Below, one piece after another: positions 4,451 to 35,100 of a stretch of 64,000 nucleotides of DNA. Source of the DNA: Botryllus schlosseri. Lineage: Eukaryota. The translations under genes were made by a program, and so were the position numbers. Location of the stretch: the NCBI GenBank assembly GCA_051294905.1, contig CM119371.1, positions 23,934,001 through 23,998,000 on the forward strand. The letters run 5' to 3'. Below the pieces are notes generated by a model, which searched no databases, was not told the DNA's origin, and was given only the letters and a program-made list of their open reading frames with translations. How positions within the stretch are numbered: position 1 is the first letter of the stretch; every line of letters begins with the position of its first letter.

Positions 4451-4506
4451 AGGTTAATTTAAAGTAATAATTAATTATTATTAATTAATTTCTTAATACA
4501 ACCAAA

Positions 4507-6835: not shown

Positions 6836-7046
6836 TATTATTAATGAGGAGTTTTAAGTGCGCGTGTCGCCGTTTCCGGCCTTGTGCACCACGGGCAAAA
6901 TATGTTATCAAGGATCAAATTTTCGTGCTCTGGGACATAGGTTTATAATAAATTTCAAACTATATATACAAGCTACAAGTGGATAATATGCTTCTCACTC
7001 TAAACTTGCCTTGGTAATCATTCCATTTGTGGAGTCGACAGGGAGT

Positions 7047-13000: not shown

Positions 13001-14061
13001 GTGATAGAAAGTCGTCGTTTTCCTCGGGCCAGAATATCGTTCCTTCGTGAATACAACTAACAGGGCGTATTCAGACGTAAGTAAAAGGGGTCATTTTGAT
13101 ATACGACTTCACAGAAACACGGGCTGCCCTCAGACACGACTTCATAGGATTTGCTTGACAATAAATCTGCCCACTGCCGGATTGGGTCGAAGAGGTCAAG
13201 CACGATCGCCGCTAACGAATACGGAGGCGTAGAGACGTAGCGCAATGCATTTTCACGCAGATCGTGTAGCACGCGTGAGGATAGCAATACCTCAATAGTT
13301 CTACTGGCAGCCACCTGCAGTTCAATTATACTTTCAACAAACCAAGGGTACAACCTCGGCGGCCAAGCGAATAGGTTTGTTAACGGATATAATTTGATCA
13401 ACCTTACTTCTCAATACTCATACTCGTTGAAAGTATCACAACGCTGTGCTACATTTTATCGGAAATGCCGGCACGATACCTAACAATCACAATGTGAATT
13501 GCCATGTTTGAAATTCGAATTTGGAAACGCGAACGCCAATAGACACTTACGTGACCTTTGACACGAACCAATCAGGTTGCAGCAGGATGTAAACGAACAT
13601 CAAGCCCGGGCAAACTTACTATGATTTCTTATGGAAAAAGGTTGTAAAATGAAATTTTTTAGCAAAATGACATTGAATTGGGGAAAGCTGGCTTTGGTGA
13701 ATGGTAATAACGTAGATATAGTACGTGTTCTAACCTGGAGCACACATCAATGGTGGCAAGCACGCGTCAGCATAGAATGTACAAATGAATCGATTTCTGA
13801 CAACTTTTCGGATGAAGCTACTATTTTTGAATTATCCTTAGTCGTATACAAACTATAGGATTTTCGTACCGAATAGCATGTATTAGAGGAATCTTGAGAC
13901 AGGATAGGTGGGGTATTCATTATGTGTGCTCGGTGTTGTATGCGTTCTATTTATTGAATCGTATATGGTATAGTCTGTATCATTAACTAGCAAATTACTG
14001 TTACACTGGACACTTGTCCGCATATTCTATAATCAACATATAAATATAATATATGTTAGGC

Positions 14062-15260: not shown

Positions 15261-15336
15261 TGTTAGGCAATATGATCCGTTCCCGGCTGAAATCGTCATT
15301 TTTGTTCTGGCTCATGTATTGAATCAATCATGATAA

Positions 15337-15540
15337 ATGCCGCATAAACACTGTACTAATAGCCTGTGTAACTTGGAGATTGCTACCCAGACAGTTCCTG
15401 GTGTGCGCTTCTACCTTTCCCAGAGCCGATAACATGTACGGAAGAATGTAAAATCTGGATAAAGGCATGTGGACTTAGTTATAGTCATCTGAATTCTCAT
15501 TTTATTAATAAAATGACGTATGTATTATTGTACCAAAAAT
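15337..15540 (+). pseudogene. THAP-like zinc-finger remnant of a DNA transposon
   Basis: Frameshifted translation MPHKHCTNSLCN..YPD..PGVRF.FPEPITCTEECKIWIKACG...INKMTYV matches the THAP C..C..FP..W..C/H pattern. Confidence 0.55.
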
Positions 15541-15559
15541 GTTGAATCATCACATCATT

Positions 15560-15915
15560 TAGATAGAAAAATTCTGCGTTTCAAAATTTCAAAATGAGTC
15601 CAATCTGAAATGCAGTCACACTGCTTTCGTTGTGGATGCCATATTCGACTTGGTGTGTGTCTCATATTACTCCGCTCCAGTGTTTGTTGCTTGAAGGTGT
15701 GTAATGGATTGAAATTGTTGAAAGCAATATATTCAATAATGAGATAGATAGTTGATGACATTGGTATACCTACATGTATATATCTGTCCTAAAGAAATAG
15801 AATACACTAGGCCCGATTTTGACATAAATCTCCTGACTGGACATCTTCCGTTGAACGCGGTATCTAAACCACCTTGGCGTGTACGACATATTTCCTTCAT
15901 AACATCGGCCGACAA
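15560..15915 (-). pseudogene. Possible YqaJ/lambda-exonuclease-like remnant (ISL2EU/Kolobok accessory ORF)
   Basis: Fragments KSGLVYS and RKQCDCISDWTHFEILKRRIF resemble YqaJ motifs (GLV.. and CDF..WT...RI). Heavily decayed. Confidence 0.35.
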
Positions 15916-16149
15916 CTATATAAAGTTCGATCTCTGTGTGACTGCTGGAGCGTGAAACCCCTTTGGAAATTTCAATAAATTGCAGCTCCATTATGGCGGC
16001 GTTCTGAAGAAAATGGCTGCGGCCAAATATGTTTTTCGTTTTGCCCTTCAATTTGAGATCACGTCATTTTTAGAGTGCAGTGCCCCTTTAAGAAAAAAAA
16101 AACGCCGTGCTCATTGCGATTACATTCACAATATCAATCTGTCTATATC

Positions 16150-16490
16150 ACATGCAACTTTGAAAGGATTGATGGATTGTGGTGCACTAACGTTTGTGCG
16201 AGAACTATTCACATGGAGCTATGGTGCACCACGAGATGCTATCATGGCAGAAAAGGGATTCGCTTCGCCATTGAGTCTGAAATCAAGAAATTAAATCAAG
16301 ATTTTAATATTCCAGCACATGATTTGGCACAGCGTCAAATGTCGGGGCCAAACTGTTCCACAACAAGAAAGATGGCGAGGCATCGTATTCATATTAAACA
16401 ACTGATCGGTAGAATCAAGGAGAATAAAATTTTGTCCGGTGTCATACTTAGCAGCATTGTGTGTCAACTAACCAAATATAGACTAACTAG
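16150..16490 (+). pseudogene. ISL2EU/Harbinger-type DDE transposase C-terminal remnant
   Basis: TLKGL..GALTFVRELF, DAIMAEKGF, NIP...RQMS..TRKMARHRIHIKQLIGRIKENKILSG are characteristic DDE_Tnp_4 motifs, frameshifted. Confidence 0.75.
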
Positions 16491-16582
16491 CTTACTCTAA
16501 TTGAAGATTAAAAATTAAAAATGAATGACGCAACATATTCGGCTATCGTGCAAATTCAGTTCCATTGTGAATATCGTAATGC

Positions 16583-17056
16583 CTAATAGCATGCTTCGTA
16601 AAGTTGTGGTCCTGGCATTTGTTTCCAACTGAAGCGTTCAGCGAAATTCTCAATGACTTCCTCTTTGTCCGTGCGACTGTTGGGATACCATTGTATGAGG
16701 GAATCCATCATATCTCTCCAAGTGTCTCGTTCGTTGGCATTGTAGACGCGAGATAGATTAAGAGCTTGTTCTATTCTGCCCGCCTTTTCGAGTTTACTCC
16801 GTAGAGCTTGATAGAATAATTTATCTCTTGGTTCATGGCCACTGCCCGTGTTGGTGTTATTGATTTGTTTTAATATCCACGTAACTAGTGGTTTGTCTTC
16901 AGGATCGTCTAGGCGCTGTACGAGTTCTTTGAATTTATCCGTATCTGGCAACAGGTGTTGACGTCTGCCTGGTGTTAGGCATTTCAGCTGATCTCTGGTT
17001 AGCTCGTAAGATTCTTCTTCACCGAGTATTGTAAAACCAATCCAATGACGTTTACG
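16583..17056 (-). pseudogene. Putative gag/capsid N-terminal fragment of the retrovirus-like element
   Basis: Frame is open from about 17056 to 16583 with no ATG at its 5' end. The pattern LRSKL..A..TWRDMMDSLIQWYP..F..WKQMPG..LYE resembles retrotransposon gag (TW..L...Y ... Q..GE...Y). Confidence 0.45.
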
Positions 17057-17092
17057 TCACAATTACAGCACAATTACTCAACAATTAATACA

Positions 17093-17590
17093 CAATTACA
17101 TCAACAATACACAGGCTTCAGCATAAGGTATGTTCCAACCGGGTTGCATGCTTATCACTGCATATCATAGGCCCTTTACTTGACAATTACATCAATAATA
17201 TACAGAATTCAGCAAAAGGTATGTTCCAACCGGGTCGCATGCTTATTACTGCATATCATAGACTCTTTACTTCACAATTACATCAATAATATACGGCATT
17301 AAGCAAAAGGTATGTTCCAACCGGGTTCCATGCTCATTACCGCATATCATAGGCACTTTACTTTGCAACTACGGTACAATTACTTCAACAATTACATCAA
17401 TAATATACGGTGTTCAGCAAAAGGTATTTTCCAACCGGGTTACATGCTTATTACCATATATCATAGACACTTTATATCACAATCATAACATGACTACTCC
17501 AACAATATACAATATACATACTTCAGCATAAGGTGTATTCCAACCGGGTCGCATGCTTACTAATTACTGCACATTGTAGGCACATTACTT
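17093..17590. repeat. Tandem repeat, about 91-bp unit, about 5 copies
   Basis: CAATTACATCAA...TTCAGCAAAAGGTATGTTCCAACCGGGT.GCATGCTTA.. starts at 17093, 17184 and 17275; two more diverged copies follow. Confidence 0.9.
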
Positions 17591-17953
17591 ATGATTGTGT
17601 CAGAAGCAAATCGCTCTTCATTTTCACGTTTACATTCATGAATTCATTCTATACAAAGGCACATGCTACACTGGTATCAATAACCCCATTTATGTTTCGG
17701 ATACATCAAGGCAAGTATTTCCTGTTCAGTATCGTAATACATTATCATGTTATCGTGTCAAATACACACATTGTACAGTTACAATACTGACAAATTAACC
17801 GTCACAATTTTCAATTCATATCCCAAAATATTAATTCACGTTTCATTAACTCATTATACATCACAAATGTTAATTCATGTCTCATCAATGTCTGCACACA
17901 TGCTATTGTGCTGCCTCGACTCTCCAGAATGTTCGCCGGCGTTTATTTAATAA

Positions 17954-18041
17954 TTATTCACAAATTCTCGCCTTGAATTACTTTATTCACAAATTCTCGC
18001 CATGAATTACTTTATTCACAAATTCTCGCCATGAATTACTT
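17954..18041. repeat. Tandem repeat, 29 bp x 3
   Basis: TTATTCACAAATTCTCGCCATGAATTACT repeated three times (one substitution). Confidence 0.95.
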
Positions 18042-18548
18042 TTTGTCAGTATTTTTCGAACAACTTTATATTCCTTTGACCTTTTCCCCCCTTCTTAATC
18101 AAACATACATAAATATCATTTTCATTTCTGCCAAAGCGCTCTCACTACCCCCGCGCAGCATATTGATTGTTCCTAACAATTCCAGAACGTCTTCCATTTC
18201 AGTCTCAACATTTGATTACAAATATAACAGTCGTATGTAATTAGTACAAAATTCCTTATTCTTCTTTCCGAATCATGTTTGATTTTCTTAATGCCATCCA
18301 AATTATCCATTAATTTGTTTAGTACGGCAAAATTTTCCAACAAGAACCAAAATTGTTCTTTTTCTTCGATATCTTATCCATTTTTCTCTAATTTTATCTC
18401 ACCCTACTTCGCTTAGGCATATCGTCTGGGAAGCGACACAACACAGTCAACGTGTAAGCAGCTCAATCGTAATCGATCGAATAAGATTGTTACACAATAA
18501 ATTACCGACAAATGCATCAATTGACATATACCACAAAACAGCCTAAAC

Positions 18549-19674
18549 TAGGGTTACCATATTTTTGGTTCACAAATTCCGGACGCTCTTCAGCGCCCAC
18601 TAGCGGATTTCAAAATGAGGTGTGAGCGAAATGTCGATCAATATGACGTTACACCAGCATCGCTTTGTCTATCGACTGGAGGTGGTCGCGATCCGGTTCA
18701 GGAGTATGTGGTTGTGTATTGTATGTTGTAACCTGGGCCGAAGCAACATATTTTCAGCCCCATCCCGCCCAAATAAACACTGATCTTGGGCCCATCATAG
18801 GGTATTCGATGCAACTTCTGGGGTTTTACCATATGCATCTGGTGTTAAATGATTTGAATGAATTGTGTCAATAATATTGGTTCTTCCATATATTACTGTA
18901 TAATTCTAATCCTCTCTCCACCGACATAATCAGAGTCAGCGGTAGAATTGAGCTGATGTAGGATGATGACTTCGAAAATGCAAGGGGCGTGATTGTACAT
19001 CGTTAAGTCATGTTCATGTCACGTCAATAAGATTATTTATCAGCCTAATGCGGGTGTGCACTTCACCACTGAGCTACATAAACACCGCACATCCGGTGGT
19101 TTCCAACCTTTTATGGTCGCGAATCCATTTCCAATTTGAAAATGTGCCGTGGCCCAGCTCAAAATTTGATGAGCTGATTACTAATTAAAGGTCGGCACAT
19201 TTGCCCAGACTTACTCATTGCCTATTTGGAAGCTAATTACGTTCAACATCTTCGCGAACCCCAGAATAAAGGCAAACTACCATCGTTTTTGAATAAAGCA
19301 TCCAAACGACCTAAAACGACGACTCTATGAATACCGTTATCTTGTAATCGCGATTACAATTAGACTTCTTTTTGTAAATGAATGTTATTTTTATTTATTT
19401 CTTGATCGCAGTTTTTGCGAGAGCGATAGTCCCATATTAAAACCAATATATATGATACTAAATCGCGCCTAGCGCGAAGAAAAATTTCATGTAGCAAAAA
19501 TCTACGCAAAAATAGTCTTGTTTAGGTTGATTTACGAAGAAAAAAAAGATTGAGCTTACTTCAAGCCTTCGAAATTCCGGACATTTAGGCATATTTTAGA
19601 AATTCCTCCCGGACGCAGTTTTAACAGTGAAATTCCGGACATGTCCGGGAAATTCCGGACGTATGGCAACCCTA
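18549..19674. mobile_element. hAT (Tip100-like) MITE inserted in the non-coding region of the retro-element
   Basis: TAGGGTTACCATA ... TATGGCAACCCTA TIRs, perfect TSD GCCTAAAC, AAATTCCGGAC subterminal repeats. Same family as 53375-54497. Confidence 0.92.
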
Positions 19675-20249
19675 GCCTAAACCCTAATCGCCGCGATGAC
19701 CTGTTACTCTGACCCCTCATTTGCTGACTTAGACCTAGGAGGAATAAGGCTGACAGATTGATCCAAACATGGCCATAGGCCAGTCTTAATCAACGTGTCC
19801 TAAGGTGTGTCAAGTTCAAGCTTTTCTCAAGTCGTCCCATCACAGCATTCAACCCTTCATCCTTGTCTGGTTTATGTTGTCTTGACGACAACATCACCAG
19901 TCAAAATGTCGGGATACGCCGTTTAAAGACACGGAGTCCAACTCTCGCCATTCTCACCTTATTCCCCACTTCGAATTTTATCCAAACAACCAAATGTTGT
20001 TACTAATCAATTGGAGCTATCAATAGTTATTGCCCATGCATTATGCACAACCGGTTTCCAATTGAGCCCCCTTCCAGCAGGCAAAACCTTCTCCGTTGGC
20101 AATGAGATGTTCCTACCTAGTTAGTCCTATCTATATAGACCCCCCAATCCCCACAATTTATTACATATATACACTTCTCGAGCAGGTCTGTCGATGGGAA
20201 TGTCGACCGGAGGTTCATAGCAGCGTTTGGCGTGCACTAATCACCCTAA

Positions 20250-21524
20250 AAGCCGGGAAAACTAATTGAACATATTAGTTTAAATCTTTGTCTTTCGGCT
20301 TTTGATCCGTGTGCTGTTGCAGTCTATAGTCTGCTGTAATATGCAGTTTTTGTCTTCCTCGTGGCACAAGTCGCAGTGCGTTGCGGCTAAAACACAGACT
20401 CGTGTTCTCTTCAAGGCTGCTCGCAGCTCTCTTTTCGTCTTTTTACCAATGGATAGCATTTCCAGTCGTTAGGATTCTTCCGTCAGATTGCAAAGTGCCT
20501 TTCGGGATTTTCTTCCTTCCATCATCTCTTTACTAGCAAGCATAACTCCTTTGGGCAATTCTTGCTTCGTTTCTCCCTTCAATACCTTTTGTTCATTGTG
20601 TCTCATCATTCGCGTTTTTTTTGAAGAGTTGTTGGAGATTAGGCTCTATCATATGCATTAGTATTTCGCACATCCTGACATCCTGCCAATGTTCAGGATC
20701 ATTTCGTATCTTCATACGCTTGTATCTTTCGAACGCCGCCTTCGTTTCTTTGGTTATTTTGATCGACGAATTAGACTTTTCTCGAAGTATTCGATTGTAT
20801 CTTTTTCGAGCTCTCTGCGATAATTGCGATTTGTCCACAGTTTCGATAGCCTGTTCTTCTTCTGCACTTGTCGACGGCCGACTATTTACTTGTCTCGCAG
20901 GCGTTACGACTCCCTTTGGTGATGCGTTACTTGTCAAAATCCATTTCATGACTGATGGTGACTCGTTCTTTCCAACTGCTCTGGCCATACCTCTTGTCAG
21001 TACCAGATTCTGTTACCGAATATGTAGCATGTGCTATTGTATCATCAGGCGATATCTGTTCAGACACCTTCTTCCTGGAATATCCATAGATCTCATGTAC
21101 CATGGCATGTGAAACACGACAAAATCGGCGCTAATATCCTTCCTTGAATACCAATGAATATCATGTAGCGTTGTTCCAGATTTCATGTCAATTACCATGT
21201 CACACAAATTTGTTTTACATGAGTCGTCGTTATAAATTCCATTTTAAATATTGTATGTTACAATCTGTTTTACATCCCACGATTTTATTTCTCACATTCG
21301 ATATCGTCGGCCCACTTCACACCCTTTGTTGGTTTGGCTTGATATGCCGGCAGTGCTATCGCCGCCATTTTAACGGCTTCGGGTAGTATCTTTTTCCCTT
21401 CGTGAATCAAATTGCTATTCTTGATTGACCACATACGTTCTTTTTTATTACTTCCCACCTCAATGACGGATGCAATCTCTGTTTGTTTTTGTGGCACTGC
21501 GGGTGGCATTGTAATAGGATACAT
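20250..21524 (-). pseudogene. Decayed accessory ORF(s) downstream of env
   Basis: ORFs 21285-21524 and 20593-20988 are linked by protein-like sequence broken by in-frame stops and frameshifts, and it continues to about 20250. No family recognised. Confidence 0.45.
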
Positions 21525-24148
21525 ATCACTATTAGCACTGCTATACCAATGGCTGCTGGAATCAATAATGGCTTGAACAGTGATCCGAATACGCTTCCGA
21601 ATATACCTCCGACTGTTTTACCAACGCCACTCACTATCTTCTCGCCTTCATTAATGACTGTCTCCAACCCAGTTCCGACACCTTTAGCAGTTTTGACAAC
21701 TACATTTCCGAGACCTTTAGCTATTTTACCTGACGCGTCAAGCACCCGTTCAATTCCCGATCTTCGACCATACCACGTTTTTTCTTCATGTTTTATAGTC
21801 ATACTTGCATTCTTGATCTTTTTCAGTTCTCGGTGTATAGCACTATTCTCTATCTTTCTTATCGTCAGATTGCTATTGGTATCGTTGACAAATGATTCTA
21901 GCGGCTTTTCGAATTCTTCAATGTTGACATTTTCCACAGGTATTTTCATTCTTCTTGCAAGTGTTTTCAGTTGTATTATACCCTCTATAATATTCAATTC
22001 AAATTTGACATTACTGGGTACATGTATGTTCACTCGCAGCAATTCCCTGCTAACCATATCATCAGCCGCTAGATGAACTCGCGCCATTCTTTCCAGCATG
22101 TGTATTTCCGAAACTAAGTTCTTCAAAGTAATGGAACCATCTCCATTTCCCATCTGCACTAAGGTCGAAAGAGTTTTGTCATCTTTGTCTGCTAGCCGAG
22201 CTGTTTCAAATAACTTTACTTGCAAACTGGTTAACATCTTCATTAGTTCAGGCGTCATTTTGTGCATATGCCGAAGATCTACCGCAGTTCTTGCTAGATT
22301 CTTTGCATCATTACGAAACCTTTCTCTAATTTCTTTTTCCAGGCTTGCCACATGTGCATTGACGGCCGATTCTATTTTAGTGGAACCCCATTGTCCTGTA
22401 GTTGCCAATCGTATAATTCTGGAACCCACCGCTAGCACTTGCCTCTTTGACATTGTCTGATTGTTAGCAGAGTCCGATTTTCCTGTCATTGTCTTAAAAC
22501 AAAATGGCTGAACAGGATATTTTTCTTGCACATTCACATAGTAACGTGTGTCATTCCAGTACCTAAGTTTTGTAATTAGAGGAACAAAAGGATGGTCGCA
22601 CTTATATTGTCGTGCTTTCTTGGTGTTTTCCGTTTGTAACAGTATTAAATCCTCTTCCAAAACTCCGTCATAACCTCCGGATCTTGGTGGCCAATCGGTT
22701 TCGTAGTCCGACCAATATGTATCCATAATCGATGCATTGCCTTCATTAATTCCTCTTCTCGGTAGTCCCAAGCGACATAAAGGAGTTCCAGTTAAGGTCT
22801 TGTTAGGTATTCCATCTATTACTTTCAACCGTAGTCGATTATTCCAGACTCTCTCGTGGTCTCCCGTGTAAACAACCGACCCCCATCTATGTAGCATGTG
22901 AAACGTAGCGAACGGTTTAAACCTTTTACCCGTCTTTACTGCCCATGTCTTATAGTATTGTCGTGTTTCTGTCAATGTACTATTGATTTCGTCCTTTTCT
23001 ATACTGGATATATTCGGGTTTGCCCAGATATTGTTAACGTATTCTTCCATCAAAGCCAACTTTATCCTTGCCAAATCCTCAAATATAAATTCAGCACGGG
23101 TCCGTTGTATGTGTATTGCCGCACTTCCTGTAATGCATTTCATTTCTTCATGCATCCTTTTAGGGCTCGTTTTATTAAATCGCTTATCTGTTTTTCCCCA
23201 GGTCATGACTAGATACGGATCGGCCTTTAGCGTCTCGGGTCGTATTCGAGACGATTCTTTGCCATAGAACGAACAATCTATAGTCCATTCTGTCCTTATT
23301 TTCAGCGCATGGTGAGTCCATTTGTCGAAAAATCCTTGCCACAAAGGTAGTTTACTGTCATAGGAATAATTGATTGAATATGACCAACTTATTCGGCTGA
23401 GTTGCCACCTAATTCTCCTCTCTTTAAAGTGCACTAGCCTCTTGGTAAAGGCTTCTTTCTTAGTCGTACAATTAGCATGTACTTCGGCAAATTCTTGGAA
23501 TAGCAACGAAATTTGTATGCGATATGCCGTGAAGAATTCCACCAAATTGAGGACTGTAATATCTTCTTCATTCCATGACCTCACATTATTCGATTCCGGA
23601 TCCCAATTCCAATCATACCATTGGTACGGTTTATTGTTCCGAACATAAATCACGCTCCGATCAAATACTAGAGGATGCAATTCAGGCAATATCTCAGATC
23701 TTTTCCGGTATGTTGTCGAGTTGTTTGTTTTACATTCGGAGATATACTCGTCATGGGACGAGAATATTGTGGTATTAGGGAAGTATTTTTCCACATAATT
23801 CACAGATCTTGATCTTACTATTATTCCATATGTACTAGTTGTAAAATCCGAAAGAGTGTCATCCTTTTCGTCACATTCCGATGTCATGTTGTACTTGAGT
23901 CCCTCCCATCCGGCTATAGGTACCCATTCATGAGTAGCGTTATTGCCGTGTAACGATTCATCATAGACTTCAGTCTGTAGCCATTGTACCTTGTCTTCTA
24001 TGCCAACAATTGTAGATCCGAGCCCGGGATTATAGGTTGTTTTTTCATCCGTCTGGTTCGTTTTCGATCCTTCCGCGTCCAGCAGAACGCAATAAATGAC
24101 CATGATAATCCAGCAATAGACAACAGAAGCAATGCGAACGTGGCCCAT
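21407..24148 (-). CDS. Envelope-like type I membrane glycoprotein (913 aa)
   Basis: N-terminal hydrophobic signal peptide, many N-x-S/T sites, basic sites YRKRS and SKR, a helical heptad-like region, a Gly-rich amphipathic membrane-proximal segment, TM PLLIPAAIGIAVLIVICILL and a short tail. Lies downstream of pol. Confidence 0.8.
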   Translation of the reverse strand: MGHVRIASVVYCWIIMVIYCVLLDAEGSKTNQTDEKTTYNPGLGSTIVGIEDKVQWLQTEVYDESLHGNNATHEWVPIAGWEGLKYNMTSECDEKDDTLSDFTTSTYGIIVRSRSVNYVEKYFPNTTIFSSHDEYISECKTNNSTTYRKRSEILPELHPLVFDRSVIYVRNNKPYQWYDWNWDPESNNVRSWNEEDITVLNLVEFFTAYRIQISLLFQEFAEVHANCTTKKEAFTKRLVHFKERRIRWQLSRISWSYSINYSYDSKLPLWQGFFDKWTHHALKIRTEWTIDCSFYGKESSRIRPETLKADPYLVMTWGKTDKRFNKTSPKRMHEEMKCITGSAAIHIQRTRAEFIFEDLARIKLALMEEYVNNIWANPNISSIEKDEINSTLTETRQYYKTWAVKTGKRFKPFATFHMLHRWGSVVYTGDHERVWNNRLRLKVIDGIPNKTLTGTPLCRLGLPRRGINEGNASIMDTYWSDYETDWPPRSGGYDGVLEEDLILLQTENTKKARQYKCDHPFVPLITKLRYWNDTRYYVNVQEKYPVQPFCFKTMTGKSDSANNQTMSKRQVLAVGSRIIRLATTGQWGSTKIESAVNAHVASLEKEIRERFRNDAKNLARTAVDLRHMHKMTPELMKMLTSLQVKLFETARLADKDDKTLSTLVQMGNGDGSITLKNLVSEIHMLERMARVHLAADDMVSRELLRVNIHVPSNVKFELNIIEGIIQLKTLARRMKIPVENVNIEEFEKPLESFVNDTNSNLTIRKIENSAIHRELKKIKNASMTIKHEEKTWYGRRSGIERVLDASGKIAKGLGNVVVKTAKGVGTGLETVINEGEKIVSGVGKTVGGIFGSVFGSLFKPLLIPAAIGIAVLIVICILLQCHPQCHKNKQRLHPSLRWEVIKKNVCGQSRIAI

Positions 24149-24276
24149 TCTGAGTTCACATGTGGTAAATATATTTCAAATATGTTGTTCTTTTCCACCG
24201 TACTTGTTTCAGTCACACTCGATATGTTCGCTTCCGACATGGGTATTCTAACTAGTATCTGTAAAATGGATACCAT
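23998..24276 (-). CDS. Small single-TM protein overlapping the env start (92 aa)
   Basis: ATG start, hydrophobic WATFALLLLSIAGLSWSFIAFCW followed by polybasic TRKDRKRTRRMKK. Confidence 0.4.
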   Translation of the reverse strand: MVSILQILVRIPMSEANISSVTETSTVEKNNIFEIYLPHVNSEWATFALLLLSIAGLSWSFIAFCWTRKDRKRTRRMKKQPIIPGSDLQLLA

Positions 24277-24319
24277 TGTTATTATTGTATTCAGTGCTAA
24301 ATGTCCAATTGCACAAATA

Positions 24320-25021
24320 TCAGTCTATCAATATCGTAGTCCGAACGAAAACCACATTATCATCTTTCAACTCGTTAGGTATAAAGTGTTTGCTTGCCCA
24401 TAACCAGTTTTTGCTTCCATTCCATTGCCATAGATGTAATGGCTGACATTGTTCAGTATTGTTCCAATTTTTCAGGACGTCCTTACGAGGGTACTTGGAT
24501 TTACTCTGTACATTAGGCAGTGTAACAGATATTCTGTGTCTCTTTTCCCAACCTTTAGGCGCCTTCTCACAAGTAGTGAGTACACCGAATTTGTATTTAT
24601 ATCCCTGCAGATATTTTTGTTTCATTGGCAATAACCCATTGTTCAATGCTTTACGGTATTCTCCATCAGTAAGGTAAGCATATAGCTTATCCACATTAGG
24701 ATGTATCTCATAAGATCGAAACATTCTCCAAACTTCACTCAAGCTTTCTTCAAACCCCGGCCTCTTCTTTCTCCAGTCATTTCCTTGCATTTCATTGGTT
24801 ATACTTAATTGTAGTGGATTTAGCCGTGAGTTACAGGGTAAAGGCCACACAGTTATAAGCTTCATTCGGTCCACATAATTACTTCCTGAAACGGTAGGTT
24901 TCATATTCCATCCATGTCGTATAATTCCATATTCCCTCAGTCTCAGATGCATAGCAGCATTAGCCGACCTACTAGGATAATATGGTAGATTCCTATTCAT
25001 CTGAAATAGATATACAATCAT
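24320..25021 (-). CDS. Accessory ORF (233 aa) with a possible degenerate ART/Tpt1-like C-terminal fold
   Basis: Intact ORF between pol and env. LYAYLT......NGLLPMKQKYL and NWLWASKHFIPNEL echo KptA LYHGT......GL.PM.R.YVH and NGVWL...IPP. No integrase HHCC/DDE motifs. Confidence 0.5.
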   Translation of the reverse strand: MIVYLFQMNRNLPYYPSRSANAAMHLRLREYGIIRHGWNMKPTVSGSNYVDRMKLITVWPLPCNSRLNPLQLSITNEMQGNDWRKKRPGFEESLSEVWRMFRSYEIHPNVDKLYAYLTDGEYRKALNNGLLPMKQKYLQGYKYKFGVLTTCEKAPKGWEKRHRISVTLPNVQSKSKYPRKDVLKNWNNTEQCQPLHLWQWNGSKNWLWASKHFIPNELKDDNVVFVRTTILID

Positions 25022-25478
25022 GAGGAATTATGTCCGAAGATAGTACAACTTTCGACGCGTCATTCAAGGACCATAGTGATTGCGGTTTGAGTCTTTCTAT
25101 GTCAATGCAAATGCAGACTTCTCCCTTTTGCTTCGCATCTTTCTCGTCCGTGTACAGATGTACAAAACGTCTTCCCATCTTAGCTATGCCTTCCACCATA
25201 ATAGGGGATACTCGGTTCTTTCGAGTGGCATGAAACAATGATGTTAGCCCTTCCGGGTTAATCCACTGTTGCATTTGCGGATTCTGTCCTTTAGTATGTC
25301 CTTGTTTTGCCGCAATCCCATGATCTGAGATCATTATTCTGTCCTTCTCAATCCATTCCGTCGGATTATCATAGCCATATTTCATAGCACATGCAAAAGG
25401 GTGCCAACCCCTCTTCTGTAGCATACACACTGTATGCCTGAGATGTTTAATCAATTTTCTGTTAAGCTTTTCTTTCTC
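24993..25478 (-). CDS. Tpt1/KptA-like RNA 2'-phosphotransferase domain fused to RNase H
   Basis: LIKHLRH, GW, KDRI, IAAKQGHT, LFHAT, EGIAKMGRRFVHL, CIDI and VVLSSDIIPHDCI appear in Tpt1 order. Confidence 0.8.
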   Translation of the reverse strand, partial: EKEKLNRKLIKHLRHTVCMLQKRGWHPFACAMKYGYDNPTEWIEKDRIMISDHGIAAKQGHTKGQNPQMQQWINPEGLTSLFHATRKNRVSPIMVEGIAKMGRRFVHLYTDEKDAKQKGEVCICIDIERLKPQSLWSLNDASKVVLSSDIIPHDCISISDE

Positions 25479-25559
25479 ATTTTTTGTCATTCCGCCTTTC
25501 TTGATAGCTATCCAGGCCAGTGGGTCACCTTCTTCCACTGCCGTGTTTTCAACAAACAC

Positions 25560-27218
25560 TCTTGATAGCGCATCCGCAGTGAATATTTCTGACGTAGAAA
25601 TATGAACCACGTTCCTGATATTGTAGGCGCTGATCACAGCCACCCATCTCATCATTTGCGGGTCATCTGAAGCTTGTTTGTTACCCTCAGTGGCTTTCTT
25701 CAATATTCCCATTACTCCTTTGTTGTCCGTAAGTATTGATACAGGTCTATCCAGAAGTATAGAACCCCATTTTTCGAAAGCTCGTACTACCGCCAACATT
25801 TCCTTTTTACACGCGCTGTATGAACTTTTTTCATTAGGTTTCCATTTCTTTGAGTAATAAGCCACGGGTTATATCTGTTTGTGGGGAATGGGTTCTTCGT
25901 TCTCCGTTTGGTATAGGACTGCACCCATCCCGTCCAACGCCGCATCTGTTTGTATGAAGATTGGTAGCCCCATTCGTAAATGAAAGAGCGTTTTCGGTCG
26001 TAGTAGAACATCACGCATTTTCGTGTAATTATCAAACAGCGTTCGTGTCCATTTAACAGGTACTCGCCTGCTTTGTGACGCTGGTACACATCCTGTCTGA
26101 CTATCAAAACACGCCAGTATCATCGCCATATCTTCAAAGTGCGCTGCCAAATATCTCAATGCTCCAATATATCCGCGTAGTTCGAATATATTCCTGGGCG
26201 GAGGCATTTCACGCAAGGCTCTGATCCTTTCAGGTTGTACTTTGACCGTATCTTCATCCAGCAACACGCCAAGTAGATTTATTTTCTTCTTTCCCACAAA
26301 GCATTTATTGATACTGATGGTGAGTCGAAGTTCGGCGAGTTGAGCAAACACCAGATCTAGTAATACTAGATGCTGTTCATCTGTCTTTGTTATGAGTAGA
26401 ATATCGTCAATGTATGCGAATATAGGGCATGCCTTTTCTTCCTCTTCTCCCCATCCATGGGTTTTTGCAAGCTTTCTGTATTCTCGCGTCACTGGTTCTA
26501 CCAATCCTTCATTCATCGATTGCTGGAATATTGCCACGGCATTTTTGAGGCCCATAGCTAAACGTTTCCAACGTAGTTCTCTATTTGGTACCGCAATTCC
26601 CAAATATTTGCGATATTGTTCTGGCACCTGCACGTGATAATATGCCTTGGTGAGATCTATCAGCGTTTTCTTCGTCCTTCCCGATGCTTTATGTATCAAA
26701 TCAGATATCAGAGGTGGAACTACATTTGTAGCTTTAGTATTGTTGTTGAGAGGTGCGAAATCTTGAACTACTCTCATAGGTGGATCCGGTTCACCCGTTA
26801 GCCCTTGTTCGAGGTGCCGTTTCAATGCTTCCTCTTTTTGTCTGTTGTTCTGTTTTTGAGCCACTACAAAGGGTGATGTTTTCCATTCAGAGTTACCTAC
26901 TTCAATGACGCCCAATTGTAGGTATCTGTCCAGCTCTTTTTCCAATACCCTTGTATGTACGTCATTACGCAAGGTATACGCCTTTCCTACGAACGGGTCA
27001 AGTGACTCATCTTTGAGCTCAAGCGTGAACTTGTATGGTAAACCTGAATCACGTGATAGATTTTTTTCCAGGCTGCCTATTTCGTTCTTGTATTTTTCGA
27101 AGATTGGTAACCAAATCTCAGGCCTTAGCCCTTCCCATTGATTCTCAGGGTCTTCAATATCTGGTGGTTTATAATCTTCATTTGCCAGTATAAGCGCTTC
27201 AGCAGCTGCTCTTTCCAA
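25560..27218 (-). pseudogene. Ty3/gypsy-like reverse transcriptase and RNase H (one in-frame stop at 25869-25871)
   Basis: SEWKTSPFVV, RVVQDFAPLN, IDLTKAYYH, MGLKNA, YIDDILL, KCF..INLLG; RNase H QTDA..GMGAVL, AYYS, KEMLAV, TDN, ADALSR. Confidence 0.92.
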
Positions 27219-27352
27219 GTCCTGTTTAGAGTGGATTCTTCGTCTTCTGCTAGCACGAAGTGACGGACTTCCGCTCCCCAGGCCTTGCCTGTATTCTCTT
27301 GTCTCATCTTAAATTTTGCAGGTTGCTGGGTGTTTACAAGGTGATCAGTCTC

Positions 27353-27481
27353 ATAACCCAAGCCTCTTCTGCCATTATTGCCTTCAGCTCTTACAGGTAA
27401 TTTTCTACCTTGCAGGCACTTTCCAAGGCCTTTTCCTTCTTCGTAACCCATGTCTTGACACATCTTCACAGATGCTGGGCT
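27353..27481 (-). other. G-patch domain between protease and RT
   Basis: SPASVKMCQDMGYEEGKGLGKCLQGRKLPV......RRGLGY fits the G-patch consensus. Confidence 0.88.
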
Positions 27482-27929
27482 ATATATGTATAGTGGTACT
27501 TTTTCGTCGTTTGTTTCCCCTGTCGATTCTTGTAACAGATAAGATATCGGCCTTTCAGTAACAAGTTTGCTAGATTCTGGCGGCACGCGTGGCGGCGTCT
27601 TCTCTATTTGTCCTGAACACGGCATTTCGTATGTCCGTACATCGGTTCCCTCCGAGTACGACAGACTCGTTATCGGCCTTTCAACACTTTGTGCTGAACA
27701 CGGCAATTCACATGTGGGATCGTTTGCGGACTTATCTTGGTCGCTCGTCTTCCCTGAGGCTGCAGTCCTCGTATCTTCTTCAGCACTGGTTTTCCCCCCA
27801 GGCACGGAGTGTTTTTGCGTGATTTTCGACTTCACCAACCATTGATCAAGGTCTTTCTGAGGTACGTCTACCATCATCATGGCCTTGATTAAGCTGGTTT
27901 TTCCTTCTTGCGTCTTCCATCTTACGTCG

Positions 27930-28527
27930 TCTTTTGGCAAGTAGTGTTTCAACGTATTATGTCCAATTACATTTACGGGTACTTCTTCTCCCGTTAAAAA
28001 GGGGATATTTGTTCATTTCCCATATCTATCCACATCACGTATTGAGATTTCACTTCGCCTCCTACGCCTTCAATCTCAAAGGCATGTAGTAGTTTGTCGT
28101 TCCACTCACGTGGGTATGCTCTTTCGGCTGTTTTCTGCGTAATCATATTGGGCGTCGCTCCTGTGTCTGCCAAAAATGTGGCTTTCTTGCGTACATCACG
28201 TATATACGTCATTTTATCCCAAAATAGCGATTTGAAAGTCAATTTCAGTTTCCGCGGATGAGCTACATACGATAGCCCTTCCATCCCATGCGGTTCTAGC
28301 TTATCTTCCAGCCCTACGTGTCGTACCTTATGTATTCCGTTTTGTCTTCGTACAGTAGGCAGTTGTGATTTATGTACAGTTGAAATGTCATGTCTTTTAT
28401 CAGAAATGCACTTATTATTTACAAATGATTTTTGTGCAGGTTTTGCATTCTCTGTCCGGCTTTCGTAAGCAGGAAACCCTTGCGCCGGCTCTAACGGTTT
28501 CCGATTCCTTCCCCCTGACGTCGCCAT
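27930..28527 (-). pseudogene. Retropepsin-type aspartic protease (frameshifted)
   Basis: FLADTGA active site and IEGVGG flap; the C-terminal VIG..L motif continues in another frame after 27994. Confidence 0.85.
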
Positions 28528-29035
28528 GCTGGAGCATTAGGGTTCAGACCCCCAGTCGGACTGGGTTGTGTCGGAGGACGAACTTTGGGCACAATTTCCT
28601 TTCGGTTGTATATGCGTGGTAATGGCTGGCGTCCTGCTTGCGGAAAGGTGGCGTCTCTCGGACCGTTATAAGCTAGCTCTAGCATTTTGCGTTCTTCTGC
28701 CGTAGGTACTCCCATGTCAAGGAAATATTGATTGAGCTTGTTCATGGTGGTGAGGTCTAACCCCAAGTTGTTTCCGCCTTCTAGTATTGGAGCCCAGTGT
28801 GTTCTGTTATTTTCGATTTTCGTTGCCAGTTCCTCGTCCATTGCTCTAGCTCTAGGCCCGAGTTAATATCCCACTACCTGGTCTCTGTCATTTTTCCTTA
28901 CTTTCCAAGTTTCACCGTTTCTCCATCTTATAGCCTGCATTATGCAATTGCGTGACATGTGACCAGGGCTCTGACATTCACGGCATATTACGTTCTGTGC
29001 ATCAGGTCCAGTATATAACCCCAATGGTTCAAATA
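28491..29035 (-). pseudogene. gag C-terminal fragment with CCHC zinc knuckle
   Basis: CRECQSPGHMSRNC. Same frame as ORF 28491-28841 across one TAA. Truncated at the right TIR. Confidence 0.8.
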
Positions 29036-30406
29036 TGTTAGGTAATACCAGCTCTACGCTATTACTATTCATCAGGCCAGCCATCACCAATTCAATATAA
29101 TTTTGCTAAAAACCTTCATTTTACAACCCTTTTCCATAAGAGCTGATAGTAAGCTTGCCCGGCCTTGATGTTTGTTTACATCCTTCTGCAACCCGATTGG
29201 TTCGTGTCAAAGGTCACGTAAGTGTCTATTCCAAAGGTGTTTATTTCTCGCTGGTGATTGGTGAGACAATGAGGATTAGAAAACTGGATTGTGGTACAGG
29301 CGCCGCTATGTCTGCTTTTCTCTGCGTGCGATTAATCAACGTATTGTGCTAATCTGAATTCAGCCTTCAAGGCACGCGATCTGCCCGGTAAAGCGAATCC
29401 GAAGGGGATATTGATTGCGGGCTTAATATCAATATTGATTTGTCAAATGTACAAACTGCACATCAAGCTCAATTTAGATTATTGATCATTTGCAATAGAC
29501 TAGTATTACGTTGCGCCTAACTTCAAAATTCCGAAGAAATCGCTCGCGGCACACTTGCGAGACGCAAATGGCACACCGCGGCACACCGGTTGAGAACAAC
29601 TGAATTAATGTTAATCTTTTACTATTATTATGGTAAACCTGTTTCATACATTATCCGGTCGTCGGTTGCGTTTGCCATGGGTAATATAAGGAATCTCCAT
29701 TTGAATGTGTTCACTCAAAAGCTTTATTTTCCTTTTCGCAAATGATGACAAATGACTAGGATTTCTTCTTGATGTAATTAGCTCGCCTGTATCCTATTCG
29801 TTATCAGCAGTATCCCCCTTGACGCGGTTGGTATAGATGTATTATAAATCGAATCGAATTCGAAATTTAGAACATCACATCATCTGCTCTCATGTAAAAG
29901 CTGTTGAGTGTTGACACAATAATAAAACAGACATGTATGAACTCATTTCCATTCGGACATTTGCTATTGAATTTTTTATTTGATCATAGCGATCATAGTT
30001 TATTTCAAAAACATTCCGCTAAATTTGGTATTGGAAAATAATGAACTATTACATTGGCCACAAATTGCATCAAGGTCGCCAATTGTAAACCTGGACTATA
30101 CATCCGCTACTGATAATTATATACTTTCACTACCCTTCTTATAGTTGAAAATATTGAGACTGAATTGGGCGTTGCTTCCAATGTATTCATTTGTTTCCAT
30201 CTTAGATCCAAGGAAATAACCGTATCATGCTTCAATCTTTTCCCTTTCATTACACCATAAAGACACGAATAAAGGTCGTAAAACTTGACCCATGAAGCAA
30301 TTATGAAACAGCAGATTCAATACCAACCTATGTTTGTTAATGTTAGAAATGGAAAATACTGAACTATTGCATTGACCATCAATTGTTTCGACGCAACACT
30401 CTAATC

Positions 30407-31535: not shown

Positions 31536-32148
31536 CTCTAATCGTAATGAGTGCCGATTTCCCAGGAGTCGAATCCTGTCTGCACAGCTAAAATCTGCTT
31601 TATTCTGGACTCGACAAACCTTGCGTATCAGTCGCGCATTCAACTACAATCAAGCAATCAAATCAGATGATAATATAGACTTAGATTCGCTTCGTAAATA
31701 CGAAGATGCTGTTAGCCAGAGTTTCGCAATGATGCTTCCTCGTGCGAGGCTAGATGGAATGTAGCATGAAACAACAGCAACAAGTAAAATACATAGGCAA
31801 GCGAAGAGTCAATCATACAGTGATCAAACAATAATTAAGTCGACAAAAATCAGACAATTAGATATAATAATGCAGGACAGCAGTAGAACTGCTACATGTT
31901 TCCTTAAAACAGGAGTCGCATCATCGAAGAAAGTCTATCAAATAATGTGGTGATCCGCAATTAGGCGATAATTACTTTCATCTGATTAGTTACGTTGTAC
32001 AGTACAGTGTCGCCTTATCGTTACCGTGTCATTCTATTCTCCTCTGTTCTGCTGTCGGTTGTGTGCTATGTTGCTTAAAGCCACATTGGTTACCTTTGCT
32101 TTAATAAAGCTTCAGTCAGTTATTCAAAGCAATAGTCGGTTTACGACA

Positions 32149-35100
32149 ATTTACGTCCGCCACATGCTAGTTACTCGTATTCAGAAGCCCGAAGAGACGA
32201 TCGAGGAATTTTCCCGCGCCTTGGCAGATCTAGCGAAAGATTGCACATTCAAGACTCTCTCGGCGGAAGATCATCGCAAGAAGTCCATCCGCGACACTTT
32301 CGTTACTGGTCTTCGATCAAACGTTATCAGACAGAGATTATTAGAAAGTGACGGGGCTGTAACCCTCGAAATGGCGATCTCAAAAGCCCGCTCATTAGAA
32401 TTCGCCCAGCGAAGCTCTAGTATCTATTGCAGCACTCCATGTTCATATGTCGCCGTCGAACCGCTGGAAAAATCTTTGAATCCTGAAGTCGAACGATCAT
32501 CCGCAGAAACTCACACTCAACTCAAAGTAATAAGCAAAACAATCAAACGTGATCGAAAGTGCTTTTTTGCGGTCAGTCATTCCACTCCCGATATAAATGT
32601 CAAGCGAAACGGAGCGAGTGTGGCTATTGTGGAGTCCTAGGTCATTATGAAGTGGTTTGCATGAGAAAGGCCACTGACAACAGGAAAACAGTAACTGCAA
32701 TGATCTCATACTTCAGCGCCATCGGAGTCCCCAAATGTCTCACAAAAGCAAGAATCGTGGTTAAGATCGGCTGCCACATAAAATTTGCTTTAATCGACTC
32801 CGGTTCAGCGGAAAGCTTCATAAGCACTGGATACGCCAATGAAATTGACCTGAAATCCACCCAGTACTCCTCTACGGTTACATTTGCTTCTACGGCCCAT
32901 TCCCGAAAGATTGAAGAACTCTACAGACCGGACATTCTTGTAAACGAATCAAAATATACGGAATTCCCTCTTAAAGTAATGGAAGATTTATGCTCTGATG
33001 TGGTGCTTGGTCTCGATTTCATGAACTTGCATAAACGAGTCATTTTCAATATGGACGGAGATAAAGATACCTTGGAACGCCCTCGAGATCAGAAGTACAG
33101 TTTATGAGGAGTTGCTCAAGGGTGTGTCGAAGCACCGCAAACTTTCAAGTTTATGACACCGAATTGCAAACCGATTGCCACCAAATTCAGAAGATACAGC
33201 GAAGCCGATCTACATTTCATCAAAGCGGAAGTTGCGAAACTCGAGAAGGAAGGAATCATCGAGCCTTTCTCATCGCCTTGGCGAGTACAGGTTCTTGTTG
33301 TAAATGACGGTCGACACAAGAAGCGCATGGTCATCGACTTCTCTTAGACGGTCAACAGGTATACCTTACTAGACGCCTATCCTTTACCAAGGATCGATGA
33401 TCAAGTCAACAACATCGCCCGTTTCAAAGTTTTCAGTACGTTAGATCTGAAGTCCGCGTATTATCAAGTGGCATCATCACCTGATGATCGTCCGTATACG
33501 GCATTCGAAGCCGCTGGAAATCTTTACCAATACCGTCGATTGCCATTTGGAGTCACCAACGGAGTTTCGGCATTTGAAAGAATAATAGACAACATCATAA
33601 AAGACAACAAGCTCACCTGCACCTTCGCTTATCTGGATAATATTTCTGTTTGCGGTATGGATAAGGACGACCACGATAGAAATCTCGACGCGTTTCTCAA
33701 TGCTGCGCAGCGATTCAGCCTCACTTTCAATCATTCAAAGTCGATCATCGGTTCGTGTCGCACGGCGTGATCAAACCGGACCGAGAAAGACTAAAGCCGT
33801 TAATCGATTTATTGCCGCCACGCAACAATCCAGAACTAAAACGAGTGTGTGACATGTTTGCCTACTATGTCAAATGGTTGCCAAACTTTTCCGACAAAAT
33901 CCGTCCTTTGTATTCAGTCGAAAAATGTCCGCTTCTCAAAAATGCATCTATCGCCTTCAACGATTTAAAACGCGAGTTAGTTGACGCGTCTCTTGGTAGG
34001 ATCGACGAGACAAGTCCGTTCACAATAGAGTACGATGCTTCTAATGCAGCCATTGCAGCTATCCTTAGTCAAAACGGTCGACCGGTCGCGTTCATGTCTT
34101 AAACACTATCGCCAAGTGAAATACGCTACTCCTCTGTTGAGAAAGAAGCGGCCTCGATCGTCGCGGCAGTTCGTAAATGGGCTCATTTTTTACGTGGCAG
34201 ACATTTCACTTTTGTGACTGACCAGAGATCTGTCGCGTTCATGTTTGACGGCAAATCTAAAGGTGAAATCAAAAATACCAAAATCCAGCTGTGGCGTGTC
34301 GAACTTGGTCAATTCTCGTACGATATCGTACACAAACCGGAGGCACTGAATGTTGCGGCTGGTATGTTTTCGCGGACCACATCTTCGTATTGCGCATCGA
34401 TTTCACCCGGTGAGTTGGGTTCTAATCTAAATCGCATACACGACACTCTGGGTCATCCAGGAGTCACAAGGCTGCATCATTTCGTTCGTTCGAAAGATCT
34501 CTCGTTCTCCCTAAATGACGTCCGAGAGACCTGCGCTCGTTGCCGCATTTGTGCTCAAATCAAACCAAATTTCTACAAATGCAATCCGCAAGTGCTTGTG
34601 AAAGCAACGAAGCCTTGGGAAAGAATCAACGTAGATTTCAAAGGGCCTTTGAAATCCAACAAATCCCCTTTCATGTTTGTTGTCATAGACGAATATATTC
34701 GTTTTCCGTTCGCCTTTCCATGTCGCGACACTTCCGCGCTAACCGTCGTTTCGTGTCTGTCGACACTATTCGCTGTTTATGGACTTCCGGGATACGTTCA
34801 CAGTGACCGAGGCACCGCTTTCGTGTCCAAGGAAGTCAAAGATTATGTACATTCTCGCGGGGTTGCAACTAGCTTAACTACGCCTTACCATCCAACAGGA
34901 AATTAGCAGTGCGAACGCCTCAATCAAACATAATGGCGAACTGTCAAACTCATTTTGAAATCAACCGGAGTCTCAGAATCATGTTGGCCTGACGCCCTTC
35001 CTCGTGCACTACATTCAGTTCGATCGCTGTTTTGAACGTCAACTAATTCAACACCGCATGACCGATTTTGTCCTTTCCAAGAAAAAAATGGTGGGGAATA

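Follow-up and report, generated by a model that had tools for sequence, protein, structure and literature searches.

The window analysed here is a stretch of 64,000 nucleotides from Botryllus schlosseri (assembly GCA_051294905.1, contig CM119371.1, positions 23,934,001 to 23,998,000). Positions 16594-29051 of its minus strand (12,458 bp, including a nested repeat) hold a copy of a retrovirus-like element, referred to below as family A. The 12 minus-strand open reading frames (ORFs) between 29.1 and 16.6 kb, taken from stop to stop, were scanned against Pfam. The first of these is a gag fragment with a CCHC zinc knuckle (28866-29105; zf-CCHC, E 7e-5), at whose end homology to other copies begins at 29051; the sequence beyond belongs to another repeat (flank repeat to 29053). 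It is followed by the C-terminal part of gag (28494-28862), taken from the ORF list, whose frame is continuous in the copy at a second locus, C3. An aspartic protease (PR) with a DTG motif (27997-28536) gives weak Asp_protease_2/RVP matches (E 1.5e-3 to 4.5e-3) and lies in the -1 frame relative to gag, which it overlaps by ~45 nt. Next come a linker with a G-patch domain (27128-28012; E 3e-13), a reverse transcriptase (RT) with a YIDD motif together with the start of RNase H (RH) (25872-27308; RVT_1, E 4e-20), and then RNase H followed by a Tpt1/KptA-like domain at the end of pol (24996-25868; RT_RNaseH E 4.5e-15, PTS_2-RNA E 2.4e-9). ORF235, from the ORF list (24323-25027), overlaps the pol end. 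Downstream lie a 108-aa ORF (TM108; 24001-24324), whose translation has one hydrophobic, transmembrane (TM) segment and then a basic tail and which is found in the C3 copy too, and an env-like ORF of 922 aa, recognized by its sequence features (21410-24175). ORF139 (20596-21012) is what remains here of a longer ORF, ORF244, which extends over 244 aa without a stop in C3; neither form has a Pfam family match of note.

The minus-strand order of CCHC gag, PR, G-patch, RT, RNase H, Tpt1, ORF235, small TM ORF and env-like ORF had been proposed in an initial annotation of the bare sequence, and it is borne out by the Pfam matches and ORF features. Two other parts of that description are replaced. 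The layout had been called tightly packed; comparison among copies instead identifies 17040-20595 as non-coding sequence that includes the leader. Tandem repeats of 91-114 nt occupy 17092-17562, and an unrelated ~1.1-kb repeat, peculiar to the window copy, is nested at 18549-19674. In addition, the ORF placed last as an accessory gene of a linear order (157 aa, 16586-17056) is the middle piece of gag (16594-17039 within the element), as judged by tblastn and the C3 gag frame, and the layout is circularly permuted. This middle piece is the most conserved gag domain.

The window copy is degraded and its gag-pol frame is broken. An in-frame stop at 28863-28865 cuts the C-terminal part of gag off from the CCHC part, and an in-frame TAA at 25869-25871 ends the RT ORF. 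Small length differences from the C3 copy break the frame near 28005 and 27225, at both ends of the G-patch linker, which also carries an extra in-frame 96-nt tandem duplication (27614-27709). Approximately 4 kb is absent: 2.2 kb, containing the gag N-terminus, at 17039/17041, ~1.1 kb near 17352-17554, and 620 bp of gag. The missing gag pieces were not found elsewhere in the window, and two ORFs that sit in the non-coding region of other copies, ORF200 and ORF151, are mostly deleted.

Other copies were sought by a protein search of the 495-Mb assembly with RT-RH-Tpt1, in which 58 of 1382 candidates were scored. Seven of these rows, at five loci, are 93-100% identical to the query and define family A. 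The remaining 51 are 40-44% identical over nearly the whole query and constitute a sister family, family B (~42% identical to family A), which keeps RT-RH-Tpt1. A search with ORF235 returned solely the same five loci. At the C3 locus pol is open for 1195 aa and gag is one open frame of 1147 aa, made up of the missing 2.2 kb, the 157-aa piece, the further 620 bp and the CCHC region. The assignment of the pieces to gag agrees with family B, in which the 157-aa piece matches gag residues 360-490 (tblastn E 4e-13) and the CCHC/C-terminal part matches gag residues 767-880.

When the copies are compared, all gene adjacencies close into a circle: gag, PR-G-patch-RT-RH-Tpt1, ORF235, TM108, env, ORF244, non-coding region, ORF200, ORF151, leader, and gag again. 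The genetic map of family A, as reconstructed from these adjacencies, is shown to be circular. The window order is a permutation of this map (gag 3' part, pol, env, non-coding region, gag middle part). The main C3 copy is 15,374 bp long with 62 bp present at both ends, giving a unit of ~15.3 kb, and the window copy corresponds to one such unit minus its three deletions, the nested repeat aside. Family A also occurs, at low depth, in Logan contigs from two runs that bear the labels of two other organisms. One run has a contig connecting 29051 with 16594 via 605 letters that form unbroken gag, and forms free of the nested repeat are present in both.

Six frames of 16000-29600 (the 12 ORFs above plus 87 further ORFs of at least 50 aa) gave no Pfam match to rve, Integrase_H2C2, phage_integrase or another recombinase, including the tyrosine recombinase that marks DIRS-type elements. 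The sole match among the 87, a weak DDE_Tnp_4 at 16057-16497, belongs to flanking sequence and not to the copy. Pfam likewise detects no integrase or recombinase among the C3 ORFs, and no direct-repeat or long terminal repeat (LTR) pair brackets the element in the window. Thus, the absence of integrase, tyrosine recombinase and paired LTRs that had been noted from the sequence is upheld, and the expectation that relatives would share the lack of integrase holds for all five family-A copies in the genome. Since all five lack it, the absence of integrase is not a deletion peculiar to one copy. Moreover, the open 1195-aa pol frame ends in Tpt1 and overlaps ORF235, so that pol has no room for an integrase.

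The copies end in an irregular manner. An unbroken stretch from env across the non-coding region to gag exists in 5/5 copies, and in none of the five does the non-coding region touch flanking DNA. Instead, the breaks fall in gag, PR or RT, at a different site in each copy. Gag continues into PR in the window copy and at C3. The C3 locus is scrambled, with head-to-head and tail-to-tail pieces around the unit-length copy: one side carries an inverted partial copy, extending from gag to where PR begins, and a 365-bp leader fragment, and the other an inverted gag N-terminal fragment. Comparison of the copies reveals no flanks common to different ones. Integrase-mediated insertion of an LTR element would leave the LTRs as its boundaries, and the LTR-element model therefore does not fit this pattern. 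The circular map and the irregular ends, as in endogenous pararetroviruses, agree with the earlier suggestion that the element was endogenized by accident. Positions 16594 and 29051 were considered as recurrent termini and rejected, since their recurrence came from querying with the window itself: the C3 and C1 copies continue past 16594, and the C12 copy stops ~12 bp beyond it.

Several repeats surround the copies. The left flank of the window copy (15300-16593) is a common repeat with a DDE_Tnp_4 (PIF/Harbinger-type) remnant. The right flank (29052-29602) is also a common repeat, the first 179 bp of which recur inverted at 13538-13716. The end of the C12 copy adjoins sequence related to a 159-bp satellite, which elsewhere forms an array of ~4 kb with units 97% identical (L026, contig C4, positions 25167-29438 of a 30-kb set). 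The C2 copy (L019-L020, 22035310-22048762) has a 13.4-kb insertion inside RT, on both sides of which 7 element bases (window 26072-26078) are present.

The position after RNase H is occupied by the Tpt1-like domain. Sequences of both families and of a metagenome relative were combined into a profile of the C-terminal 200 residues, which aligns with solved Tpt1 chains over their whole length; for 7kw8 (E 9e-15), profile positions 37-197 pair with chain residues 6-176. The columns opposite Arg16, His17, Arg64 and Arg119, which are reported as essential in Runella Tpt1 (PMC6097658), contain R, H, R and R and are invariant in 5/5 and in 7/7 sequences. By sequence comparison, then, the C-terminal domain of pol is a full-length domain of the NAD-dependent Tpt1/KptA 2'-phosphotransferase family in which all four essential residues are present. 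It differs from the Tpt1/KptA enzymes in being the C-terminal domain of a retroelement polyprotein, and full-text literature searches returned no report of an RT-Tpt1 fusion. Tpt1 is described as removing the junction 2'-phosphate left at tRNA splice junctions by the fungal-type tRNA ligase (PMC6333775), and members of the family as able to ADP-ribosylate nucleic-acid 5' ends bearing a 5'-phosphate (PMC12678800).

The env-like ORF has a signal-like hydrophobic N-terminus, 18 N-X-S/T sequons, a helical C-terminal half and a C-terminal TM segment. Its similarity to the family-B env is weak and collinear (E 2e-4), and an RSKR site of the C3 env is absent from the window env. An AlphaFold2 model of env built on a 4-row alignment was unusable (pLDDT 28), and a language-model atlas gave a weak pointer to class III fusogens, namely gB and rhabdovirus G, at a score of 0.91 but a sub-threshold recognition value. 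ORF235 has no match in Pfam, PHROGs or the language-model atlas, no relatives in the genome beyond the five family-A copies, and no similarity to the transposase of family B described below. The model of the conserved gag domain reached pLDDT 55, and a Foldseek search with it against the PDB had no match at E <= 0.001; the Ty1 CA-CTD chain that ranked 24th (E 3.1) was discarded, as it is not evidence of relationship.

Among solved structures, the best matches of RT-RH are 8r0s 'Enzymatic polyprotein' (E 5e-42), which we take to be a caulimovirus polymerase, and then Ty3 (E 1e-35). Family A is related to both the Ty3/gypsy and the caulimovirid reverse transcriptases. A word-index protein search with the 1195-aa pol yielded only distant gypsy-like proteins, and closer relatives surfaced solely in an exhaustive HMMER search, which listed 150 proteins. 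RT, RNase H and Tpt1 occur together in 4/5 top candidates scanned (P0013, P0014, P0015 and P0079); the fifth, P0017, aligns into the Tpt1 region and has no Pfam Tpt1 match. All five are from ENA or Logan contigs. P0015 (967 aa, on a 361-kb ENA contig) has an Exo_endo_phos (AP-endonuclease-like) segment after Tpt1, which is either a real fusion or a gene-model chimera. Integrase-related domains were found in 31/35 of the next-nearest proteins scanned. A scan of JGI/ENA metagenomes gave 22 loci. On two marine contigs gag-CCHC is followed by pol, which reaches into Tpt1 on one (L047) and is truncated within RNase H on the other (L045). A third, 13.9-kb metagenome contig carries gag, PR-RT-RH and a 1338-aa signal-bearing ORF, with no integrase and no LTR pair. 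No relative was found in a scan of IMG/VR. The RT-RH-Tpt1 end is common to sequences from the genome and from metagenomes at 36-47% identity.

A quick maximum-likelihood tree was built from 46 RT-RH segments, with a midpoint root and no named references. The nine rows of the Tpt1 lineage form one group (SH-aLRT 99), within which family A is sister to the rest (98), and the integrase-less 13.9-kb contig is sister to the whole Tpt1 group (95). An RT/RH phylogeny had been called for by the initial annotation to place the element against Metaviridae, Caulimoviridae and Retroviridae. The tree yields a single Tpt1 clade with an integrase-less sister, beside gypsy-like, integrase-bearing sequences, among rows that include no named member of those three families.

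Pairwise codon differences were counted among the five family-A copies. The ratio pN/pS is 0.04-0.14 for RT, 0.00-0.28 for RH-Tpt1 (0 being one pair without a non-synonymous change), 0.20-0.31 for env and 0.16-0.68 for ORF235, and synonymous differences between copies reach 0.18. Because decay after segmental duplication would give pN/pS near 1, the copies represent separate endogenizations of a replicating agent. The copies diverged under purifying selection; RT, Tpt1 and env were under selection in the agent, and ORF235 probably was too.

Family B differs in its mode of insertion. An ORF with a DDE_Tnp_IS1595 domain is present in 3/3 copies examined (Pfam E 8e-10 to 1.6e-17). In the C4 and C13 copies this transposase ORF lies upstream of an env homologue and a mucin-like glycoprotein, and the C13 env has a furin site. 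In the C1 copy the transposase follows an ORF with leucine-rich repeats (LRR), and after it come an E2 ubiquitin-conjugating enzyme gene, two small ORFs, gag and pol. In all three copies gag and pol-Tpt1 are at the opposite end from the transposase. Upstream of gag in a 34-kb copy are genes for an LRR protein (L030:2-997; LRR_8, E 1e-42), a second IS1595-like transposase (L030:1671-2621; E 1.6e-17) and the E2 ubiquitin-conjugating enzyme (L030:3089-3607; UQ_con, E 5e-47). In an alignment of the transposases two Asp columns are invariant, the Glu column is conserved in most rows, and an N-terminal zinc ribbon is present. Proteins 73-75% identical to the family-B transposase exist in other public assemblies.

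The ends of family B are well defined. Many copies have a common sharp 5' boundary, and a 3' boundary ~290 bp after the pol stop. All six copies in which both ends were read start with GGTACTTG... and end with ...TAGTTCC, ends that match as inverted repeats at 11/17 positions. Each of the six is bordered by a perfect 8-bp target duplication, and five of them are 34-40 kb long. Target duplications of 8-9 bp are typical of the IS1595/Merlin superfamily. Pairing of 5' and 3' end coordinates gave lengths for 30 elements: 34-41 kb for 18, 47-52 kb for three, 23 kb for one and 8-15 kb for the remaining eight. A 14.7-kb copy corresponds to a 37.7-kb one, to which it is 99% identical, with an internal part deleted. 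The RT-Tpt1 region is stop-free in 46/51 family-B matches; a slip site, the heptamer A AAA AAC, is located 15 nt ahead of the end of gag, and pol is in the -1 frame. A head-to-tail junction of family-B ends has no match in the assembly. One element on C4 extends from L036:8087 to L025:2823.

The transposase of family B may stand in for the missing integrase and would then integrate reverse-transcribed DNA at a fixed site that lies between its own gene and pol. The initial annotation had envisaged a lineage without any integration enzyme. That description fits family A, and it fails for the sister family, which carries an IS1595-type DDE transposase in the same genome.

Taken together, these observations lead us to regard the window copy, with a probability of roughly 60%, as a degraded, permuted copy of a ~15.3-kb retrovirus-like element that lacks LTRs and integrase, that derives from a replicating agent and that was inserted irregularly. 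The unit encodes a large CCHC gag, pol produced by a -1 frameshift, ORF235, a small membrane protein, an env-like glycoprotein and three small ORFs. The agent would have replicated in a pararetrovirus-like manner, by reverse transcription into circular or concatemeric DNA, and this DNA would have entered the chromosome only via host end joining. Tpt1 would act on the element's own nucleic acid, either removing a 2'-phosphate that blocks reverse transcription or ADP-ribosylating a 5'-phosphate end; processing of the element's own template or cDNA ends is the role that we favour and infer for it. More tentatively, at somewhat less than even odds, the Tpt1 clade would constitute a family-level lineage of enveloped, integrase- and LTR-free, Tpt1-encoding viruses with circular or concatemeric DNA, a counterpart of the caulimovirids outside plants, one branch of which gained an IS1595/Merlin transposase and became a high-copy element of up to 40 kb. 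No description of such a lineage was found in full-text literature searches.

A number of points weigh against this account. The pattern of copy ends comes from five copies only. Both ends of the window copy adjoin other repeats and may for that reason be secondary truncations; two random breaks would give a near-unit length in ~8% of cases, so that this length may be fortuitous. The circularity is that of a map of gene adjacencies, and such a map would equally fit tandem arrays. A 12-nt initiator tRNA-Met primer motif does not occur in the window at up to 1 mismatch or exactly in 66 loci, and no tRNA genes were found in the window or in 24 loci. On 144 kb there was no Rfam match at the gathering threshold and no hammerhead or other ribozyme; two sub-threshold matches on the element are due to chance. 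In two RNA-seq runs, of which ~6% and ~12% was read, almost no reads fell on the coding part, and no RNA run was listed among those that contain the sequence. The predicted envelope of the agent derives from features of the env-like sequence. ORF235 could conceal an unrecognized integration activity. As to family B, the use of RT in its transposition is deduced only from the conservation of gag-pol, and the family may be a cut-and-paste DNA transposon that merely carries gag-pol-env.

The most conventional alternative is that family A is an ordinary Ty3/gypsy LTR retrotransposon or endogenous retrovirus, and that this copy lost its integrase and LTRs by deletion. The gypsy-like RT-RH with its Ty3 matches, the integrase domains in most of the next-nearest relatives and the visible degradation of the window copy would all be expected if this were so. 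However, the lack of integrase extends to every family-A copy, the open C3 pol passes from Tpt1 directly into the overlap with ORF235, and the closed circular map contains no integrase and has its non-coding region at no copy boundary. The RT-RH-Tpt1 end is, moreover, retained in sequences as divergent as those of the metagenomes. This explanation is already largely refuted and we consider it highly improbable. Alternatively, family A could descend from the family-B type as a non-autonomous form that has no transposase and depends on the IS1595-type enzyme acting in trans. The two families have in common gag, pol-Tpt1, env and a small ORF upstream of gag, and family B is abundant in the same genome. 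Neither the window nor the family-A loci, however, contain family-B termini or a transposase remnant, and the family-A ends are irregular. Because ORF235 is also unrelated to the transposase, and family A is sister to all other Tpt1-bearing sequences on the tree rather than nested in family B, mobilization in trans seems very unlikely.

Two further alternatives concern the origin of the permutation. One ancient tandem array, broken up and spread by segmental duplication, would yield an identical circular map, so that permutation would say nothing about replication; the repeats at the window ends and the rearranged C3 locus are in keeping with such a history. The bias of the differences toward synonymous sites (pN/pS 0.04-0.3) is not predicted by neutral decay, however, and the copies have no flanks in common, which makes this origin unlikely. 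The other is a variant of the preferred account in which the genomic RNA is circularized by a tRNA-ligase-type enzyme, Tpt1 clears the resulting 2'-phosphate, and rolling-circle reverse transcription generates LTR-free concatemers. It would account for the fusion of Tpt1, with all its catalytic residues, to RT-RH across the lineage, for the known role of Tpt1 at tRNA-ligase junctions (PMC6333775), and for copies that are permuted or slightly longer than unit length. On the other hand, the Rfam search detected no hammerhead, other ribozyme or further match, and the ADP-ribosylation of 5'-phosphate ends by Tpt1 enzymes (PMC12678800) suggests a different role, leaving the RNA-circle variant doubtful.

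The integrase-less, LTR-less element that we prefer can be compared with several known systems. With the Metaviridae (Ty3/gypsy, including the env-bearing, errantivirus-like members) family A has in common the order of CCHC gag, PR, RT and RNase H. It also has, like them, a pol placed in the -1 frame, an RT-RH resembling that of Ty3, and an env-like gene after pol. It differs from them in lacking integrase and LTRs, in having Tpt1 in the integrase's place after RNase H, and in its G-patch, 1147-aa gag, five extra ORFs, circular map and irregular chromosomal ends. The Caulimoviridae and endogenous plant pararetroviruses (EPRVs) are similar to family A in having RT-RH without integrase, a circular map, and endogenous copies that are permuted, fragmented and inverted; rearranged EPRVs have been described (PMC9868043). 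Unlike these, family A has an env-like glycoprotein, a small TM protein and Tpt1 fused to pol, and no tRNA-Met primer site was found with the 12-nt motif. No movement-protein family was found among the Pfam-scanned ORFs of the window and C3. On the tree, which is without named caulimovirids, the lineage sits beside gypsy-like sequences.

Family B has the features of IS1595/Merlin transposons: the DDE_Tnp_IS1595 domain with its DDE columns, the zinc ribbon, 8-bp duplications and short, imperfect inverted ends. In contrast to these transposons it carries gag-pol (RT-RH-Tpt1) and two glycoproteins, one with a furin site and one mucin-like. Most of its elements measure 34-41 kb, and one long copy also has the E2 enzyme, the LRR protein and the second transposase-like gene. 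A conceptual parallel is Teratorn, a piggyBac transposon fused with a herpesvirus (PMC10175614), in which a virus-like gene set is likewise moved by a DDE transposase of a DNA-transposon superfamily. Teratorn differs in that it is herpes-like, double-stranded DNA of ~180 kb with a piggyBac transposase; the virus-like part of family B is of the reverse-transcribing kind and its transposase is of the IS1595 type. A term search of a review of giant transposons (PMC6431247) returned neither 'Merlin' nor 'IS1595', and full-text literature searches found no retrovirus-like element with an IS1595/Merlin transposase.

Reverse-transcribing elements are classed by how they enter the chromosome: by an rve integrase, a tyrosine recombinase, an endonuclease, or none. 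Families A and B would represent two states that were not found in the literature, a gypsy-related, env-bearing agent without an integration enzyme and a sister in which a transposase has apparently replaced integrase. If this is true, integration modules are swappable in retrovirus-like elements, and the genome offers a natural comparison for the effect of integrase on copy number, with five irregular copies set against dozens of clean insertions. The invariant Tpt1 fused to RT-RNase H also points to a processing step that acts on the viral nucleic acid, at a 2'-phosphate or at a 5'-phosphate end.

The remainder of the window contains other elements. At 740-6853 the minus strand carries a 1233-aa ORF of a non-LTR retrotransposon, and a second, partial non-LTR copy is found ~4 kb on (direct repeats 97-98% identical, spacing 4033-4035). 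A separate LTR-type element on the plus strand (31990-34906) has, by eye, a CCHC-like gag, a protease-like ORF and an ORF that is RNase H-like and then integrase-like. Finally, a 457-aa ORF with a P-loop (GEAGAGKS) at 60626-61999 is probably a host gene; its one homologue, 48% identical, carries NACHT PF05729.

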